DNA from: a virus
Taxonomy: Duplodnaviria; Caudoviricetes
Virus record (IMG/VR): IMGVR_UViG_3300017766_002073
Location: 1 to 35,849 of that record
Reading direction: 5' to 3' (one strand)
DNA: 35,849 bases
The notes beneath the pieces are model-generated. The model did no database searches. It worked only from the letters and a program-made list of their open reading frames with translations, and was not told where the DNA came from. A program made the position numbers and the translations under genes. Positions within the stretch are counted from its first letter, which is position 1. The number at the start of each line of letters is the position of its first letter. Shown piece after piece: positions 1,811 to 20,749 of the stretch.

Positions 1811-2623
1811 ATGCCAATCGCAGCGCCAATTATTGGGGCCGTAGCCTCGTCTGTAGTAGGAAAAGCCATGGGCGGCGGAAGCGATTCCGGTGGTTCACAA
1901 GCCACTGATCGCGCCCCGTGGGAGCCTGCGCAGCCGTTTTTGAAAGACCTGATCAAGGACGGTCAAAGTCTTTACGCAAAATACCAGCAGAACCCGTTTT
2001 CTGATACGCAAAAGACAGCGTACCAAAACCAGTTCACGATGAATGACACTTTTAACAACCAGATCATGCCTGGCTTGTTGAAGGGGTTCCAGGGCCTGCT
2101 GGGGCCTGGGTTTGGTGACATATCAAGCCAACTGTCCGGTGGTTTGAGCGCGCGCAATCAAGGGCTTTTGAGCTCTGCTTCTACTCCCCAATACTCACAA
2201 GACCAACTGCAGGGCGCTGGGCAGTTCATCCAAGCGAACTTGGACAATCCCGCGTTGATCAAGCAGAAAGCCAATGAGTACAACCTGTCTAACGCGGATC
2301 TGCTGCGCGCGTCTCAAACGGTGGCCCCCAATGCAACCATGGCCGGGGTCAATGAGTACATGGGGCGACAAGACCCTCAATACGCAAAGCCGTCCTTTGG
2401 GCTGCTGGACTTCAGCCAATACAGCCGCATGCCCACGGCACAAGCCACAGCGCTGGCAAACGAAACTCCTGCTCAGCGTGCCGCGCGCGAAGAACAAGAA
2501 TACCTGTTGTGGCTTGCAAGGCAAGCCGCTGGCGGCGGTAGTGGTGGTGGGGTAGGAAACAGCGCTACCGGCGGCGGCAGCCCTGGCGATGCCGATGGTG
2601 TCGGCGACTCAACAGGGGAATAA
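1811..2623 (+). CDS. DNA ejection/pilot protein, 270 aa
   Basis: AAGGAG SD; hydrophobic Gly/Ala N-terminus (IAAPIIGAVASSVVG) followed by APWEPAQPFL; typical of gp7-like pilot proteins. Confidence 0.7.
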   Translation: MPIAAPIIGAVASSVVGKAMGGGSDSGGSQATDRAPWEPAQPFLKDLIKDGQSLYAKYQQNPFSDTQKTAYQNQFTMNDTFNNQIMPGLLKGFQGLLGPGFGDISSQLSGGLSARNQGLLSSASTPQYSQDQLQGAGQFIQANLDNPALIKQKANEYNLSNADLLRASQTVAPNATMAGVNEYMGRQDPQYAKPSFGLLDFSQYSRMPTAQATALANETPAQRAAREEQEYLLWLARQAAGGGSGGGVGNSATGGGSPGDADGVGDSTGE

Positions 2624-7844: not shown

Positions 7845-8048
7845 CATCCCCCTTGTCCCCGGCCTGGGGGCTGAGCCCGTCCGGCTTGCCGTCGCCACAA
7901 TAGGGGCACCACCACGTTCCCAACCCAGGTTCTTCCGGGTCTTCCAAGTAGTTGGTGGGCCATTGCGGTCAAAGGCGTCGTACTCGTCACCCATGCCTGT
8001 AGCTGATGACACGGGCAGCGGCGGGTAGGTCAGGGGTGCATCAGCCAT
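7716..8048 (-). CDS. Hypothetical protein, last gene of the early-left arm, 110 aa
   Basis: ATG at 8048 with AAGGAG SD overlapping the upstream stop; the 3' part overlaps the lipoprotein gene on the other strand, so its extent is doubtful. Confidence 0.4.
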   Translation of the reverse strand: MADAPLTYPPLPVSSATGMGDEYDAFDRNGPPTTWKTRKNLGWERGGAPIVATASRTGSAPRPGTRGMLLRPELYRGFLLDDARSINSVFKETDGAHAEGGTTCSNQAEE

Positions 8049-8802
8049 TTTGGGCTCCTTGCTGTGCCAGGGCTGCAGCGTCCCAGTAGCCTCGCTCCAC
8101 CAGCACATTGGCGGCATCGCTTGCGGGGTTGGCAGATTCACCGATGGCTATGAGTTCGAGCACTGTCCGCAGGGCGTCGCGGTCGTCGTGCATTTCATTG
8201 CGCAGCCGCTTGCTGAAATCGGCGTCAGGCCCCGCCCCACTGTCGGGGCTCTGGGCTGCGAGAGCGGCGCGGTAAGGATTGGCGGGCATTGCGGGGCCAT
8301 CGGGCTCGTCGGTCGCGTGGTCCCACTGGAAGGCTTGAAGCTCTCCTGTCCATTTGCGGTGCGCCTCGAAGCCTTCCGTCCATGCTTGCGCAGTGTCGCC
8401 CGTCGCCCCTCCAGCGGCAGAGGTGGCGGCGCAATGGGTGTCGGCAAGTTCCTCGTCCCAAAAGCCACGATCCACTAGCACGGCTGACGCATCTCGCGCG
8501 GGATCGGCGGCTTCGCCAATTGCGATGAGTTCAAGCGCTGTCCGCAGCGCGTCGCGATCCTCGACGATCTCATGGAGGATGCGTTTCAAGTTGTCAGCTT
8601 GTGGCGCGGCAGAGGTGGCGGCCTGGGTGGACAAGAGCGCTTGGCAGAACGCCTCGAAGTCTGCGGGGGCGAACTCCAGCGAAACCAGTTCGTCGCCAGA
8701 GAAGCTGTTATGCGCGCGGGCCTTGTGTTGCCATGCGAGGTCGTACCATGGCTGCGAGGCTTCTTCCGGCAGCGACAGGGCGGCGGGTGTATCTTGGGTC
8801 AT
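8041..8802 (-). CDS. Mosaic early protein with internal duplication, 253 aa
   Basis: Start MTQDTP with GAAGGAA SD; two copies of DRDALRTxLELIAIGE...RG(F/Y)WD. Confidence 0.8.
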   Translation of the reverse strand: MTQDTPAALSLPEEASQPWYDLAWQHKARAHNSFSGDELVSLEFAPADFEAFCQALLSTQAATSAAPQADNLKRILHEIVEDRDALRTALELIAIGEAADPARDASAVLVDRGFWDEELADTHCAATSAAGGATGDTAQAWTEGFEAHRKWTGELQAFQWDHATDEPDGPAMPANPYRAALAAQSPDSGAGPDADFSKRLRNEMHDDRDALRTVLELIAIGESANPASDAANVLVERGYWDAAALAQQGAQNG

Positions 8803-8812
8803 TGTGTTTCCT

Positions 8813-9049
8813 TCAAAATGGCGGGTCACAAAATTCGCCGCTCTTTTGGTCCTTGTATTCGGCGAGCCGGCGACAGATGGGGCGCCGCAGCGGGTCGCCG
8901 TAGTGGCTGTTGATGCATTCCTGCTGTGCGAGGATTCGCCAATAGGCCAGGAGCAACGGCGTCTCGCGCCTGCTGTAGAAGTTCTGCATTGCGTCCTGCC
9001 CGCGCGCGATCTTCCAAAGGCGCTTGGTCCAGCGGATTGGCTTAGCCAT
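8813..9049 (-). CDS. Hypothetical protein, 78 aa
   Basis: GGGAGG SD; overlaps the upstream stop; fills the operon gap. Confidence 0.65.
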   Translation of the reverse strand: MAKPIRWTKRLWKIARGQDAMQNFYSRRETPLLLAYWRILAQQECINSHYGDPLRRPICRRLAEYKDQKSGEFCDPPF

Positions 9050-9512
9050 TGCTCGCCTCCCCGGTATCGGCGGGTTTCGCTGGTGGGGCGGCCATCACGT
9101 CCAGCGCGTCCTGGCATGCCTCTTCGGCGCTGTCGCCCTGGCCGCGCGCGATCACCTTGCGGCTTTTGGCGTATTCAGCGGTGCCGGGCTCGCCGCTCGC
9201 GGGCCGGTCGGTCAGCCATGCCATCCAGCCAGTCCGCCGCGTGTAGGCCAACTCGAAGTAGGCGTAGTTCTCGCCCTGCTCGATCAGGTCTTCATGCGCC
9301 TGCAGCAGGCCGCGAATCGGGTCGGACTGCTGGGCTGCCGCACTGGAAGCGCGGGCCGCCTGCCATGCCAGCCATAGTTCCTGCGTCAAGTCCCAGACGA
9401 AGCGGCAACGGTTTTCGTCCCATACCGTGTAGGCATGGCCGAACTTGCCGTTGTGCCAGGCCTCGAATTCATCACGGCCATCTGTTGTGGTGGGGGCGTC
9501 TTGTTTGGTCAT
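9042..9512 (-). CDS. Mosaic early protein, 156 aa
   Basis: Start MTKQD with AGGAG SD and ATGA overlap; RDEFEAW...WLAWQAARA cassette joined to a YFELAYTRRTGWMAWL cassette. Confidence 0.75.
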   Translation of the reverse strand: MTKQDAPTTTDGRDEFEAWHNGKFGHAYTVWDENRCRFVWDLTQELWLAWQAARASSAAAQQSDPIRGLLQAHEDLIEQGENYAYFELAYTRRTGWMAWLTDRPASGEPGTAEYAKSRKVIARGQGDSAEEACQDALDVMAAPPAKPADTGEASNG

Positions 9513-9718
9513 GTGGGGGCTCCTGTGGGGCGTTTTTCGTAGCTTGGGCACTGGCTGATGCAGTTCCAGAAGCGGTTTGTGTAGGGCCATCCGCGAACGC
9601 ACAGGGCCGGGGCATCCTTGCGACCAACGGGGCGCAGCAAGCAACAGTGCTGGCAATCCACGCAAAGGTCATCGGGAGTCAGCGACTGCTGCGCTCCAAG
9701 AGGGGGCGCCGCACTCAT
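9509..9718 (-). CDS. Cys-rich small protein, 69 aa
   Basis: ATGA overlaps at both ends; CxxCxxC...C...CxxxC pattern. Confidence 0.6.
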   Translation of the reverse strand: MSAAPPLGAQQSLTPDDLCVDCQHCCLLRPVGRKDAPALCVRGWPYTNRFWNCISQCPSYEKRPTGAPT

Positions 9719-11051: not shown

Positions 11052-11459
11052 CTAAAAAGGCACATCCGAAAGATCGTCGTCGTATGGATCTTTTGCTTGG
11101 CGTGGAGCAGGAGCCTGGCGCTGCTGTGGACGTGGCGCAGGGGCTGGTGCTTCATCCCGGCGACCGCCTTGCAGTGCAACGTCATTCACGCGGATATCCA
11201 TCGAGGTCTTTTCAACGCCCGCGTTGTCGGTGTACTTGCGTTCGGACACAGAGCCCGACACAGCCACTTGCTGGCCCTTCGTGAGGTACTGGTGCAGCGA
11301 TTCAGCGCGCTTGCCAAACAACTGGCAGCGCCACCAGATCGTCGGCTTGTCACGGCCCTGGCTGTCGGCCACCGAGAAGTTAACCACGGGGTCGCCGTTG
11401 GGCAGGTTGCGGAGCTCAGCATCTCGGCCAAGTGGGCCAGCTACAGTGATGTTGTTCAT
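11052..11459 (-). CDS. ssb: Single-stranded DNA-binding protein
   Basis: GPLGRDAELR, NFSVA, YLTKGQQVAVSG and acidic tail DDDLSDVPF. Confidence 0.95.
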   Translation of the reverse strand: MNNITVAGPLGRDAELRNLPNGDPVVNFSVADSQGRDKPTIWWRCQLFGKRAESLHQYLTKGQQVAVSGSVSERKYTDNAGVEKTSMDIRVNDVALQGGRRDEAPAPAPRPQQRQAPAPRQAKDPYDDDLSDVPF

Positions 11460-11461
11460 GG

Positions 11462-12088
11462 TTATTCCTTCGGGGTGGCGGTTGCAACGCCGTGATCTTT
11501 GATGGCGCGACGGATGGGTGCGGACAGGTTGGCCCAGATTGCCGTACGCTCTTCAGCGTCTTCAATCTTTTGGTACGCCTCAAAAGCGCCTTGCACGTTC
11601 TGATTGCGCATGAGCTGTTGGATAGCCATGGTCACATCGCCAACGCGCTTCACGGCGGCGTCATCAGCCAGCACAGCGCCATCGGTAGGCTTGTTGCGCA
11701 CCGCTTGAGTCGCCTTCGTGGCCGCGTTGCCGTCATCGTCTTCTGGAGCAATGCCGCAGGCCGCCATGACGCTGTAGCGGCGCGCGTAGGTCAGGGCAGA
11801 CCCGTACCCCTGTGGATCTTGTTTGGCGGCTGGAACGTGCAGTTTGCCGCCTCGGATCGTCTCGCCGGACTCATGGAGGAAAACCGTCTCCACGGTTACA
11901 CCGGTAGCGTCCTCTGAGGTTTCCTGAATCAGGGCAATGCCGTTGTTCAGCAGGGCATCTTCCACGGCCTCCAAGCAAGTACCGAGGTCGGCGTACTTAG
12001 AACGAAACGCCGGGTTCGTCTTGTCCTTCAGCGCTGGGCCGAATTCCTTCTTGGCCTTCACAAAGGCGGGGGCAATTTTCTCGTACAT
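11462..12088 (-). CDS. erf: ERF-family single-strand annealing recombinase
   Basis: NPAFRSKYADL, HESGE and PQGYGSALTYARRYS...DDDGN signature. Confidence 0.93.
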   Translation of the reverse strand: MYEKIAPAFVKAKKEFGPALKDKTNPAFRSKYADLGTCLEAVEDALLNNGIALIQETSEDATGVTVETVFLHESGETIRGGKLHVPAAKQDPQGYGSALTYARRYSVMAACGIAPEDDDGNAATKATQAVRNKPTDGAVLADDAAVKRVGDVTMAIQQLMRNQNVQGAFEAYQKIEDAEERTAIWANLSAPIRRAIKDHGVATATPKE

Positions 12089-12173
12089 AGTTACTGGCCT
12101 TAGATTGGTCGTACTGGATTTGCTGCATTGCAGCGCTCTCGTCGCAGCTTTCCTGCAACATGCTTCTGTACAT
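11997..12173 (-). CDS. Possible small ORF, 58 aa, overlapping the erf start (not in ORF track)
   Basis: Strong AAGGAG SD before ATG at 12173 (MYRSMLQESCDESAAMQQ...); overlaps erf by about 90 nt in another frame. Confidence 0.4.
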   Translation of the reverse strand: MYRSMLQESCDESAAMQQIQYDQSKASNYVRENCPRLCEGQEGIRPSAEGQDEPGVSF

Positions 12174-12174
12174 C

Positions 12175-12556
12175 ACACTCTCCTTTCACAAGACGTAGCT
12201 ACAGCAGGGGTGATATGGGTGCATCACCTTTCTCCATCTGAGTGCCTCTTCTGTGCTATCCCAGACCAAGTGCCATGAGGGGTTTATTCCATCAGCCCGG
12301 CAGCTGCCTGTCACCGTATCTGCCGGACCTTGCTGCAGTCGCTAAACCAACGCTGCGGAGGCCAAGGTGGGTCGTTCAATGGCCTATGTTTCTTGAGTGC
12401 AGCCCATTTAGGCCCATTTGCTAACCCGCTCTGAGGGTCGTTTGGGCACAAAAAAACCTCCTGGTCTGTGCCCTGAGTGCTGGAACCACTCGCGCCATTT
12501 AAGGCAAGGACACAAGCCAGGAGGCTCGTTTGTCTTAGTGGTTCCAGCACGCCGAC
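12175..12556 (-). ncRNA. Candidate long structured RNA / switchable leader
   Basis: 14-bp perfect stem 12477-12490/12537-12550, alternative 20-bp helix 12507-12526/12455-12474, at least five further hairpins; most G-U pairs work only on the minus strand; promoter directly upstream. Confidence 0.6.
12408..12449 (-). CDS. Candidate 13-aa leader peptide (MPKRPSERVSKWA)
   Basis: AGGAGGT SD (12462-12456), 6-nt spacer, GTG at 12449, TAA at 12410-12408. Confidence 0.4.
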   Translation of the reverse strand: MPKRPSERVSKWA

Positions 12557-12562
12557 AACTGA

Positions 12563-12591
12563 ACTATGCCATAGGACTTGCAGACACTCAA
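12563..12591 (-). promoter_or_regulatory. Sigma70-like promoter
   Basis: TTGAGT-N17-CATAGT with extended -10 TGn, about 12 nt upstream of the 14-bp stem. Confidence 0.6.
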
Positions 12592-12595
12592 GTGG

Positions 12596-12778
12596 TTATT
12601 GCCCCTTGATGCACAAAAATCGCAGATCCTTTGCGCTACCGCTGACAAGCTCTGCCGCTTTCTTCCCGGCTGCATGGCATGCCTCCAAAGAAGGTTGCGG
12701 CACAGACAGCATTGCTACCGAATCGCCCTTAGCAAGCATCCCTGCATAGATGTAAATCACCAAAAAATAAGCGCTCAT
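12596..12778 (-). CDS. Small exported/membrane-anchored protein with two Cys, 60 aa
   Basis: TGGAG SD before MSAYFLVIYIYAG; hydrophobic N-terminus; SLEAC...FLC. Confidence 0.7.
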   Translation of the reverse strand: MSAYFLVIYIYAGMLAKGDSVAMLSVPQPSLEACHAAGKKAAELVSGSAKDLRFLCIKGQ

Positions 12779-15930: not shown

Positions 15931-16237
15931 GGTCATCTCCATAGGTTGGTTGGGGGTGAAGGTCAAAACAGACTCAGCGAATCTGCTTTGATATTCATCG
16001 ACGATGTATCCACCTGGTGGTGTCCCGTCAGTGCCTGCCTTTGCGGTAGTTGGCCCTACCTCCACCCCTTGCTCGATGCCGCCATGTGGGTCAGGCGGGG
16101 CCGGTGTTGTTCCGGTGCATGGGTTGTACTTTGCCAGAGCGTCCGACTACACGCCACACAAAAAAATCTATCGCGTTTTGCTTTTCCATTGGCCGAATTG
16201 ACGTGACTTCTGCAGGCCGCCGCCGTCCAATCTAGGC
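15931..16237. promoter_or_regulatory. Divergent early control region
   Basis: Strand-switch point; several short hairpins and an A/T tract at 16160-16190; no repressor-like ORF; exact promoters not resolved. Confidence 0.55.
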
Positions 16238-16384
16238 ATGCCAAACCTCACACTCCCATCCTTCACCGTGACGTTCAAGCCGGAAGGCATACACGTCACG
16301 CACACCAAAACACAGGCCGTGTTTGTGCTCAGCCTTGCTGAGTTTGAGCGCTGGCTGACTTCCAAACTGCGGGGGCAAATCTGA
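16238..16384 (+). CDS. Hypothetical protein, 48 aa, first rightward gene (not in ORF track)
   Basis: MPNLTLPSFTVTFKPEGIHVTHTKTQAVFVLSLAEFERWLTSKLRGQI; TGATG overlap with the next gene; no clear SD. Confidence 0.6.
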   Translation: MPNLTLPSFTVTFKPEGIHVTHTKTQAVFVLSLAEFERWLTSKLRGQI

Positions 16385-16773
16385 TGACACGTATTGCAAT
16401 AGAGGACTTGATTGGTCCAGACCTTGACTGGGCTGTTGCGCAAGCAGAAGGAATAGAAGTTGTCCAGCCAAAAGGGTGGTTCAATGGGGCACAGGTCCAT
16501 TTGGCGCGGGCTTTCCCGTACGGGCCTCCATCCTATGAGCCATCTCGCCTTTGGTCGCTTGCAGGGCCAATAATTGAGGCCGAGCGCATTAGCGTCTTTA
16601 GAGAGGCTTTCGACGATTGGTGGACCGCGACACTGGATATCGAAGTGGGCAATTGCTGGCATGTTTCTGACCCATCGCAAGGCGAAACAGCGTTGATTGC
16701 GGCCATGCGTTGCCATGTGCGTAATAAGTTGGGGGAATTCGTGGAAGTCCCGTCACGCCTGGAGGCCGCATGA
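16384..16773 (+). CDS. NinX-like (DUF2591) protein
   Basis: LDWAVAQAEG...PSRLWSLAGPIIE...GETALIAAMRC..LGEFVEVP. Confidence 0.82.
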   Translation: MTRIAIEDLIGPDLDWAVAQAEGIEVVQPKGWFNGAQVHLARAFPYGPPSYEPSRLWSLAGPIIEAERISVFREAFDDWWTATLDIEVGNCWHVSDPSQGETALIAAMRCHVRNKLGEFVEVPSRLEAA

Positions 16774-18547: not shown

Positions 18548-18640
18548 GAAACCCGGCTAGACGGGGGGTAGCTACCCCGTTGAAAAGCGTTACCCCAGCC
18601 TGCCGGTGTGTTCATTCTCTTGGGGTGCATTGGGGTGGAA
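18548..18640 (+). ncRNA. Candidate c4-like branched RNA with downstream complementary target sites
   Basis: CCGGC/GCCGG closing stem, ACGGGG/CCCCGT hairpin, and TACCCCAG complementary to two TTGGGGTG copies at 18620 and 18630. Confidence 0.55.
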
Positions 18641-18765: not shown

Positions 18766-19461
18766 ATGGCGCGCATCCGTACTATCAAACCCGAGTTTTT
18801 TACGAGCGAGGACATTGTGTCCCTAAGCCCGATGGCTCGGCTTCTCTACATATCCACATGGTGCGAGGCAGACAAGGAAGGTCGACTTGTTTGGAAGCCT
18901 GTCACCTTTAAGCTGCGCTACTGCCCTGGGGACAAGTGCGACATCCAGGCATTGTGCCAAGAGCTGGTCAGTGCTGGTCTTGTTGTGCTTTACGGGGAGG
19001 GATTGGCCTTCATCCCGAAGTTCAATGCCCACCAGCACCTGAACCCACGCGAAACCCCCTCTAAGCTGCCAGAGCCTGACGCGTCAGCACGCGTCGCCAC
19101 GCGTCAGCACGCGTCAAATCTAGATGTGCACGCGCAGGGAGGAAGGGAAGGGAAGGGAAGGGAAGGATATACACGCGTCGACGCGTGTGATGACGCCCCC
19201 GGCTTCGCCAAGTTTTGGCAGACATGGCCATCCACGGAAAGAAAACAAGCCAAGGGCAAATGCCTGGACGCTTGGAAGAAAGCCGATGGAGAAAAGGTGG
19301 CAGACGAAATTATCAGCCATGTCGAATCCCTGAAGAACAGCCAGACGTGGACAAAGAACAACGGCGAGTACATCCCGGCCCCTCTGGTCTACCTGAACAA
19401 CAGAAGGTGGGAGGGCGCCGACTTGGTTGACCAGGGTTTCACGATTGGCAAGTTCGTATGA
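18766..19461 (+). CDS. Replication initiator protein, 231 aa
   Basis: MARIRTIKPEFF...ADKEGRL N-terminal domain; iteron-coded linker; FAKFWQTWP...YIPAPLVYLNNRRWE C-terminal domain. Confidence 0.88.
   Translation: MARIRTIKPEFFTSEDIVSLSPMARLLYISTWCEADKEGRLVWKPVTFKLRYCPGDKCDIQALCQELVSAGLVVLYGEGLAFIPKFNAHQHLNPRETPSKLPEPDASARVATRQHASNLDVHAQGGREGKGREGYTRVDACDDAPGFAKFWQTWPSTERKQAKGKCLDAWKKADGEKVADEIISHVESLKNSQTWTKNNGEYIPAPLVYLNNRRWEGADLVDQGFTIGKFV
19079..19188. repeat. Putative replication origin (iterons) inside the initiator gene
   Basis: ACGCGTC x4 at 10-bp spacing (19079, 19089, 19099, 19109), GGAAG x5 (19141-19165), and an 18-bp palindrome at 19171-19188. Confidence 0.8.
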
Positions 19462-19799
19462 AAGGCCAAGACGAAATCCTGAAGATGCGCCGGGCTGGTA
19501 AGTCACCCAAATGGGTGTGGGTTGAGGACAGGGAGATTGCCGATCTGTCAAACGACACGGTAAGCCTCGCTCCGGTCGACGTGCCAGAAATGCAGGATTG
19601 GCGTTTTCTGGTTGGCTTGGTGGTGACGGTGTCGACGGTCGACAAGGCCCGTGCAGATCGGATCACCCAGTGCTGCAAAGAGTACGCCAAGCGCGTGATA
19701 ACCAACATTTACCGGCCCTATGTCGACCGACTGGGCTGGCCAAGGACTGAAGTGATTGAGACAATGGACACAGACGGGGTGATGACATGGCAGAAGTGA
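19458..19799 (+). CDS. Hypothetical replication-module protein, 113 aa
   Basis: ATGA overlap; lies between initiator and helicase. Confidence 0.75.
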   Translation: MKGQDEILKMRRAGKSPKWVWVEDREIADLSNDTVSLAPVDVPEMQDWRFLVGLVVTVSTVDKARADRITQCCKEYAKRVITNIYRPYVDRLGWPRTEVIETMDTDGVMTWQK

Positions 19800-20749
19800 T
19801 TTACTACGATGACATCGACTTTGCCGCCTACGAGCGCGAGACAGACGCAAAGCAAAAAGTACGCCCGGCTAGCCAGTACGTGCAAGAGCTGATCGACCGG
19901 ATCAACAACCCTATCCGCCCGAAGCAAGCCGTACTCCCGTGGAAGAAAACCCACGGCATGATTCAGTTCAGGCCTGGTGAGGTGACGTGCTGGGGTGGGG
20001 CCAACGGCAACGGCAAGAGCCTGGTGACCGGACAAGTCGCGCTCAGCCTGTGCGCGCAGGATGAAAAGGTGGGGATGGCCAGCTTTGAAATGAAGCCCAT
20101 TAAAAGCCTCGAACGCATGGGCAGGCAGTGGTCTGGTGAGAACCCCAGCGACCCCGCGTTCCTTGGGCATCCAGAGGCCCGCATGGCCCTTGTCGACATC
20201 TACGAACAGTTCCGGGATTGGACAGACGGCAAATTGTGGCTGTACGACCAACAAGGGACGGTGATCGCATCTCAGGTTGCAGCAGTCGCCAGGTACTGCG
20301 CGAAGGAGAAGGGCATAACGCATTTCTTCGTCGACAGCCTCATGAAGTGCGTGCAGGGCGAAGACGACTACAACGGGCAGAAATCCTTTGTCGACGAGCT
20401 GACTAGCATTGCGCGCGACTACTCGATGCACATCCACCTGGTGCACCACATCAAGAAGCCGCCGAACGAGGACCACAAGCCCGGGAAGTACGACTACAAG
20501 GGATCCGGCGCCATCACCGATCAGGTTGACAACGTCATTTCGGTTTGGCGGAATAAGGCGAAGGAGCGGAAAAAGGAGGAAGGAAAAGCGGTCGACGACA
20601 AAGACCCAGATTGCCTCCTGATCTGCGACAAGCAACGAAATGGAGACTGGGAGGGCCAGATCGGCCTATGGTACGACCGGGCTAGCCAGCAGTACGTGCC
20701 AGCCCCCTATGACGGCCCAATGGTCATGTTTCGGCACCCTGAAGACTGA
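19787..20749 (+). CDS. SF4 (DnaB/T7 gp4-like) replicative helicase lacking a primase domain
   Basis: Walker A GGANGNGKS, ASFEM, FFVDSL, HLVHH, KGSGAITDQVD, KQRNG. Confidence 0.9.
   Translation: MAEVIYYDDIDFAAYERETDAKQKVRPASQYVQELIDRINNPIRPKQAVLPWKKTHGMIQFRPGEVTCWGGANGNGKSLVTGQVALSLCAQDEKVGMASFEMKPIKSLERMGRQWSGENPSDPAFLGHPEARMALVDIYEQFRDWTDGKLWLYDQQGTVIASQVAAVARYCAKEKGITHFFVDSLMKCVQGEDDYNGQKSFVDELTSIARDYSMHIHLVHHIKKPPNEDHKPGKYDYKGSGAITDQVDNVISVWRNKAKERKKEEGKAVDDKDPDCLLICDKQRNGDWEGQIGLWYDRASQQYVPAPYDGPMVMFRHPED

Follow-up and report, generated by a model that had tools for sequence, protein, structure and literature searches.

The record IMGVR_UViG_3300017766_002073 is a complete freshwater phage genome of 35,849 bases with direct terminal repeats, and this whole stretch is referred to here as the window. 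Its gene content includes P22-like head genes, erf, ssb, ninB, ninG, a lambda-O-type initiator and a DnaB-type helicase, and no integrase or CI-like repressor was detected among the ORFs scanned (67 with PHROGs, 30 with Pfam). The initiator shares 71% identity with a prophage protein of Acidovorax kalamii, which hints at a Comamonadaceae host. Between the DNA methylase region and the erf-ssb genes lies an element of about 385 nt (12559-12175, minus strand), whose features are given in Table 1. A 59-codon ORF (11997-12176, minus strand), preceded by a strong SD at the 3' end of the element, overlaps the start of erf in another frame and has no family match. Among the larger early-region ORFs, three on the same strand (8041-9117, 9042-9665 and 16168-16716) have no Pfam match, and either no PHROG match or matches of unknown function only.

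Table 1. Coordinates of the element and of the associated features in the window.
Feature	Position	Strand	Description
Predicted sigma-70 promoter	12563..12591	minus	-35 at 12591-12586, -10 at 12568-12563, 17-nt spacing
H0, 5' hairpin	12528..12559	minus	12559-12554 with 12534-12528; P1 5' strand in the loop
P1, predicted antiterminator pairing	12477..12550	minus	14-bp helix 12550-12537/12490-12477
P2, terminator-like stem, exchangeable cassette	12455..12526	minus	20-bp helix 12526-12507/12474-12455
AGGAGGT and 13-codon GTG ORF	12408..12462	minus	present, not conserved, likely incidental
U7 run, predicted termination site	12450..12456	minus	would be buried in hairpin 12473-12444 after readthrough
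Core domain	12385..12443	minus	P3 12438-12424, P4 12414-12401, PK1 12431-12429 with 12397-12395, A-rich tail
Second domain	12281..12356	minus	P5 12356-12350/12341-12335; PK2 12348-12343 with 12286-12281; encloses P6 12326-12320/12303-12297
3' part	12175..12280	minus	CACTTGG 12272-12266 conserved; last hairpin 12228-12222/12215-12209; purine-rich end
erf and ssb	11052..12088	minus	erf 11462-12088, ssb 11052-11459 (PHROGs); first recognisable genes on the predicted readthrough transcript
Conventional replication module	18766..20749	plus	full-length initiator; DnaB-type helicase 19787-20749 (PHROGs)

The phage also carries a conventional replication module elsewhere in its genome. The initiator is intact (231 residues, lambda-O-type), and its gene contains tandem 10-bp palindromic repeats (19078-19196, plus strand), also found in the Acidovorax prophage copy, which are likely iterons. 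A lambda-O-type initiator working with a DnaB-type helicase uses the host primase. The first-pass annotation had reasoned that a phage encoding no primase might depend on an RNA primer, an argument that does not survive the presence of a full-length initiator, iteron-like repeats and a DnaB-type helicase. Therefore, the RNA should not be needed as an origin in this phage.

Leader helices and pseudoknotted domains

The promoter that had been proposed upstream of the element (TTGAGT-N17-CATAGT) is at the expected place and is backed by the family, in which a sense promoter was recovered at p<0.1 in 29 of 41 members; in the window it reaches p=0.10 against shuffles, and the promoter scanner made no call there. 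The distance from promoter to U run is 106 nt in the window and 93-121 nt in short-class homologs, with the same placement. No antisense sigma-70 site above shuffles was found in the 41 members by a consensus scan.

The perfect 14-bp stem P1, the 20-bp helix P2 (one C-A mismatch, three G-U pairs) and the third hairpin around the U7 run are all present as first described. The interleaving of the two long helices was recognised in every leader examined by eye, and both helices covary. P1 joins a variable loop to a complementary site on the same transcript, with both sides changed in 5 of 7 pairs across 16 leaders; its support comes from this covariation, per-sequence shuffle tests being significant in only 3 of 36. 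In relatives, P1 is a loop-to-bulge pairing of 7-9 bp, half the length of that in the window, and in the genome G003 it measures 11-12 bp. P2, of 17-22 bp, directly precedes at least five U in 36 of 39 distinct leaders (35 at p<=0.01), its outer 11 pairs are 97% paired in 16 leaders, and the strand bias first noted for the G-U pairs holds in the family, with all 36 members compared giving a more stable P2 on the minus-type strand. H0, with 96% of cells paired across 16 leaders, forms in the P2 state of the window. Together, H0, P1 and the outer part of P2 are 96.5% paired, and 11 of the 23 pairs show double changes (16 sequences).

Constrained folding of the window leader indicates that the two states are near-isoenergetic for 3' ends at 12456-12449 (P1 minus P2 of -1.6 to -1.7 kcal/mol) and that P1 moves ahead by 7-8 kcal/mol once 12440-12380 is transcribed. 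P1 is completed about 20 nt before the U run, and when either of its strands is blocked the leader is predicted to fold as H0 plus P2 with the U run free. In five relatives, the P2 fold beats the P1-only fold by 16-27 kcal/mol, so the near tie seems to be peculiar to the window; as the outer pairs of P2 might also form beside P1, the direction of control is uncertain. A stable stem directly before a U run together with a competing upstream pairing, as expected of an intrinsic attenuator, is predicted in 36 of the 39 leaders; the terminator scanner missed P2 because its loop is longer than 8 nt. For the window, the folding z-score is -2.2 (minus strand) against -1.4 (plus strand). Taken alone, the window is weak evidence for a structured RNA, and the case rests on its homologs.

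Some further complementarities were observed in the leader. The two P2 strands (12525-12514 and 12465-12454, minus strand) each form a hairpin, with complementary 4-nt loops (UCCU/AGGA) that could possibly provide a kissing route from the P1 state to the P2 state. A heptamer containing the 3' strand of PK1 occurs three times in the element (12480-12474, 12400-12394 and 12245-12239, minus strand), and the two additional ones could compete for pairing with the P3 loop.

From its sequence context, the 20-bp helix appears better read as an intrinsic-terminator stem than as an anti-SD helix. The first-pass annotation had proposed an anti-SD switch gating a 13-codon leader peptide, and its components are real: an AGGAGGT (12462-12456) stands 6 nt from a GTG (12449) opening 13 codons, and the two leader folds are near-isoenergetic. 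They are not conserved, however. AGGAGG or GGAGG occurs in 1 of 36 U-run leaders, namely that of the window; the close relatives X15 and X2 lack both SD and GTG but keep a U run; and no reading frame is conserved, all of which makes this switch hardly credible and the least probable of the readings considered here. The absence of a credible protein, in turn, was borne out, with 3-5 stops in every sense frame of the window and no frame open across 42 members, one frame being open in five close kin. A 159-codon frame that spans the whole RNA in L092 (1627-2106, plus strand) is restricted to the L029/L091/L092 group; it is probably due to chance and may be annotated as a gene.

Downstream of the leader, the element is predicted to fold into two pseudoknots, both backed by covariation and both overlooked at first. 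The central three pairs of PK1 are paired in 32, 32 and 33 of 33 distinct sequences, with 10, 10 and 14 double changes, and the pairs of P4 are misaligned in one subgroup (75% paired). P5 and PK2 have 98% of cells paired and 10 of 12 pairs with double changes (13 sequences); P6 was seen by eye only. The stems initially listed in this region stand in part: GACCC/GGGTT corresponds to P3 and covaries, CCGGCAG/CTGCCGG and GGTGATG/TATCACC have positional counterparts by eye, and ACCTTG/CAAGGT has one tolerated C-to-U change in X2. In contrast, the AATGGGCCT/AGGCCATT stem is broken without compensation in X15, X2 and X6, and the family has the P4 hairpin and PK1 instead. The 3' part is colinear with the family and about 96% identical in X15 and X2, and in 40 of 42 members the 3' half is skewed towards G over C on the RNA-like strand. 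No terminator could be recognised beyond the 3' domain, and no genome-wide skew turn was found at the site of the element. An internal copy of the 3' end was considered and rejected, as it spans 4-6 nt, does not exceed shuffles in the 15 members tested, and its end motif is absent from the window.

Relatives in uncultured phages and headless initiators

The inability of the first-pass annotation to assign a family is confirmed by Rfam 15, which gave no match (none at gathering in the window, none at E<=10 in 12050-12700); likewise, in 19 homolog loci the Rfam models had no relevant match over the element. BLAST of cultured phages with four members gave no match, a GTDB pattern scan was empty, no direct match was obtained in 80 erf loci using the window alone, and the search model R1, with strict filters and no positive control, found none in 151 bacterial genomes (a sample of the Acidovorax family). 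Four plasmid BLAST matches at E 5 were taken as chance. Apart from one contig identical to the window, a metagenome scan returned six matches attributed to chance. Exact patterns of the window in viral contigs retrieved nothing except L082, a 71-kb contig whose positions 2501-2529 (minus strand) have the P3 hairpin motif in common with the element and differ in the rest, probably a chance resemblance. No description of this RNA was found in the literature searched, which did not extend to the supplement of PMC5737381 and files 1, 2 and 4 of PMC10690425, where the motif may be listed. The element is uncatalogued in the sense that it lies outside Rfam 15, the cultured phages searched and the literature searched.

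The entry points to the family were a match of 25 nt in L029 and a common core pattern, which led to IMG/VR homologs and then to iteration; because of this route, the first family E of 1.6e-9 is partly circular. The core is present in 66 loci including the window (some being the same contig fetched twice), nearly all in uncultured phage contigs, and these represent 33 distinct sequences. The window is colinear with the members down to 12175. Covariation among homologs was found for H0, P1, P2, P3, PK1, P5 and PK2; the scores were reached in 0 of 500 shuffles and slid controls were far lower, keeping in mind that the counts ignore relatedness and that the structures were read from the same sequences. 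HMMs built from other leaders do not detect that of the window, which has only architecture, 5' motif and spacing in common with the short class.

Close relatives of the non-coding stretch occur in Logan contigs of several studies, each a single contig of low depth with no bearing on expression. X15 differs from the window by 13 substitutions in 12098-12440 and by 56 in 11607-12097, showing that the element is better conserved than erf. In X15 and X2, all covered sequence upstream of 12440 is swapped for another hairpin, replacing the 3' strand of P2, and in X8 (one contig, depth 3.4) 12572-12528 is kept and the 5' strand of P2 is replaced. These replacements of P2 strands in X8 and in X15/X2 are likewise hairpins. 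The X15 run is labelled RNA and its contig is continuous through erf; the X11 run is also labelled RNA and is probably DNA.

In L028 and L092, the gene after the RNA matches initiator profiles in its C-terminal part only, and in L102 and L103 the RNA is followed by the C-terminal part of a second, unrelated initiator family. These headless proteins match the C-terminal part of the phrog_270 and phrog_678 profiles, and one of them is 48% identical to the window initiator over aligned columns; a search with a headless protein retrieved no PDB relative, and in the Atlas it fell among viral clusters without a name, the nearest named family being Phg_2220_C. With the L028 protein as query, 55 viral loci were collected, all of them with at most 39 open codons upstream, and therefore without an N-terminal domain. 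The leader or the core lies within 2.5 kb in 49 of the 55 headless loci (34 of the 55 fall in one 70% cluster) and in 0 of 33 controls, defined as matching the N-terminal part of phrog_270 or lying in long frames; 32 of these controls have 1.5-kb flanks only, most are prophages rather than sister phages, and the models were trained on positive loci. Among the headless loci with at least 1 kb upstream, 47 of 50 have leader or core, corresponding to 17 of 20 clusters at 90%.

A similar association was obtained from 13 near-complete phages picked by erf, in which the leader family is present in all four with a headless gene (G003, G008, G012 and G014) and in none of the nine with a full-length initiator or a primase/helicase-like gene (p=0.0014 by Fisher's test, rising to 0.005 when the window is included, in both cases ignoring relatedness; training had included three of the four positive genomes, two are close kin, and a few kb of four of the 13 genomes were scanned by R1 only). 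G003 had been negative for R1 with default filters and was examined for its headless gene; a divergent member was found 2.9 kb upstream, as a blind prediction. R1 could therefore also miss divergent members in the controls, and with filters off no member was detected in 87 kb of five control genomes, a search in which the G027 stretch excluded its initiator. A leader-only descriptor proved unusable as evidence, since it also matched 4 of 9 control genomes at weak energy.

The position of the RNA relative to the headless gene varies: upstream, downstream (five loci), or on the opposite strand at a distance of 4 kb (G041). Such variation is easier to reconcile with a cis-acting site served in trans than with a translational leader. 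The genes downstream of the RNA vary as well (erf-ssb, exonuclease-RecT, helicase-methylase, HNH). Leaders and 3' domains are interchangeable; in 7 of the 55 headless loci, and in G008 and G036, the same long leader occurs with the core missing or with a different 3' domain. Before the headless initiators of L017, L018, L128, L131, L134, L151 and L157, the long-class leader is followed by a different, uncatalogued 3' structured domain.

No intact origin-binding initiator was found in G003, G008, G012, G014, G053, G054 and G055, whereas the window has one, and it is the only one among 17 near-complete genomes compared in which the RNA and an intact initiator occur together. G053 and G055 (L181-L184) are complete 35-kb carriers with the RNA before recombination genes, as in the window, and no initiator or helicase was recovered from them in four whole-genome family searches and in 25 of 45 and 22 of 57 ORFs scanned, respectively. 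They have exonuclease and RusA genes, with RecT-like and SSB genes also in G053, and no recognisable primase. Upstream of the window initiator, an int-alpA-like RNA motif (18550-18625, plus strand) scores 21.8 bits, below the 35.8 cut-off; in relatives, this motif is found in the interval separating the RNA from the headless initiator, and it passes the cut-off in L169.

Possible functions of the RNA

The overall reading of the first pass thus holds for a predicted promoter-driven, uncatalogued structured RNA with interleaved helices, for which an attenuator and a ColE1 RNA II-like primer both remain live, and fails for the anti-SD switch. The interpretation that we favour, at about even chances, is that the element is an attenuated RNA opening or priming a replication origin in place of the DNA-binding domain of the initiator, by a logic like that of ColE1 and not by its sequence. 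The origin idea was rescued by the headless initiators of the relatives, an evidence other than that on which it was first based. Host RNA polymerase would start near 12558, and P1 would form in full ahead of the 3' strand of P2. With its loop closed around the 5' strand of P2, P1 would hinder this two-turn helix as long as the polymerase retains the 3' end, resulting in readthrough and a buried U run. If P1 were lost, for example because an earlier terminated leader pairs in trans, P2 and U7 would end the RNA at about 105-110 nt; a trans-acting leader would have precedents in P4 CI, IsrK and C4 (PMC4825925 and PMC5320573, both in excerpt). In the readthrough form, the knotted 270-nt part would hold an R-loop near its 3' end, where host restart proteins could load the helicase, as could the headless initiator in phages that have one. 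In the window phage, the module would be an additional origin expressed on one transcript with Erf and SSB, or else a passenger that arrived along with these genes. Acquisition of the RNA, erf and ssb as one block is conceivable, as is a role in replication linked to recombination, or the RNA may be no more than a leader here. It is because of this exception that the origin reading is kept evenly balanced. A more specific scenario is tentative and somewhat less probable: the RNA would have replaced the origin-binding domain of a lambda-O-type initiator in a tailed-phage family, the leader would self-terminate through a swappable loop code, and the window phage, with both origins, would be an intermediate losing the head of its initiator.

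Other readings have to be weighed against this one. The RNA might instead be a portable control element of early operons, in which the leader attenuates and the knots act on RNA polymerase or the mRNA (by antitermination as in put RNA, which is an antitermination element, by stabilisation, or by control of translation), the link with headless initiators reflecting shared descent. The varied gene blocks downstream, the intact initiator of the window phage and the partial relatedness of the carriers, seen in the large 70% cluster of headless loci, speak for it; yet it leaves unexplained the absence of the RNA from both sets of controls (0 of 9 and 0 of 33), the blind match in G003, the loss of the same domain in two initiator families, and the copies lying downstream of or opposite to the headless gene, and we regard it as possible though rather unlikely. 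Less probable still is an immunity or timing switch of the C4/CI type, whose terminated leader would act in trans with the variable 7-nt loop setting superinfection specificity, the 270-nt part being a free GOLLD/ROOL-like RNA outside replication. That the P1 loop and its partner vary together would suit such a switch, as would the lack of integrase and CI-like repressor genes among the window ORFs scanned, the termination that P4 CI exerts through its own transcript (PMC4825925, excerpt) and the loop specificity of C4 (PMC5320573, excerpt). Its difficulties are that Rfam C4, isrK, GOLLD and ROOL do not match, that X8 keeps the 5' arm of P1 and swaps P2, placing the swap away from the proposed specificity site, that no terminator was identified after the 3' domain, and that the headless initiators are not accounted for. 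The leader part of this switch is compatible with the reading of the RNA as an origin opener.

Finally, the structures could act in single-stranded DNA, as a signal for priming or primosome assembly that transcription or an exonuclease would expose. The element does lie near ssb, annealing-protein and exonuclease genes, and STAXI, a pseudoknot motif near ssb genes, has been discussed as a ssDNA signal (PMC2864571, excerpt); against this, the G-U pairs are biased to one strand in all 36 members compared and the architecture of promoter and U-run terminator is conserved, making a role in ssDNA highly improbable.

If the origin reading is true, the DNA-binding half of a phage replication initiator can be replaced by an RNA. 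This would account for the replication of small freshwater phages that have no initiator, helicase or primase gene, and would provide a new orthogonal replicon with programmable control of copy number or timing. The window is useful here because it combines the RNA module with a conventional origin, so that one can be tested against the other in a single genome; what it adds to the family is a near-bistable leader with a long P1, and an intact origin alongside the RNA. Should the origin reading fail, the element would still represent an uncatalogued RNA class of 385 nt with two well-supported pseudoknots and a predicted terminator with an unusually large loop.

Comparison with known systems

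In a lambda O/P-type origin, an initiator acts on iterons; the relatives described here are without the N-terminal DNA-binding part and have the RNA instead, and the window has both. The Betaproteobacteria-1 RNA (RF02932) is a different class of RNA from the element, and it was found in none of 17 genomes (the window and 16 others), in a search without a positive control.

GOLLD is a large, ornate phage RNA, and both GOLLD and ROOL are linked to tRNA clusters. The element resembles them as a large pseudoknotted RNA of freshwater phages with strong covariation and no assigned function (for ROOL, PMC5737381, excerpt), and differs in that it has no match to their Rfam models, is smaller, is attenuator-gated and is linked to replication genes.

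The leader has its closest parallels in P4 CI with seqA-seqC, P1/P7 C4 and Gifsy-1 IsrK, which, as far as the excerpted sources describe them, combine a short RNA with its target on the same transcript, a variable loop with a co-varying partner, and terminated and readthrough forms, the latter being predicted for the element. P4 CI pairs with sites in the transcript from which it derives and so terminates it prematurely, the target of IsrK is the readthrough form of the same RNA (PMC4825925, excerpt), and the loops of C4 carry its specificity (PMC5320573, excerpt). RNAs of the C4/CI type are processed by RNase P and act in trans, and the C4 model comprises three stem-loops with a' and b' loops. 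In contrast to them, the element has no match to C4, c4-2 or isrK in Rfam; its terminator stem is interleaved with the loop pairing and followed by a knotted non-coding domain, and it contains no conserved ORF or SD of the icd/kil kind.

For the whole element, the comparison with ColE1 is the most relevant to the origin reading, as there a transcript can replace an initiator (PMC11012335, excerpt); PriA is described as acting on R-loops (PMC5778457, excerpt). There is no sequence similarity to ColE1 RNA II (the family HMM gives a best E of 5.9, off-target, and 12 members give z<=1.7), and a likeness perceived by eye was gone after shuffling. RNA II, given as 555 nt in the part of the literature consulted, is longer than the element of about 385 nt, and no counterpart of the antisense RNA I was found, an antisense promoter being present in 0 of 41 members. 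Alternative 5' conformations of the ColE1 type are shared by the element, in the form of predicted folds within 2 kcal/mol in the window, but its control resembles intrinsic termination acting in a leader on the same strand. The element also differs in having two pseudoknots and in occurring in tailed phages beside a C-terminal fragment of an initiator, and a persistent RNA-DNA hybrid, part of the ColE1 mechanism along with an RNase H cut and Pol I extension, is for this RNA a hypothesis put forward here.
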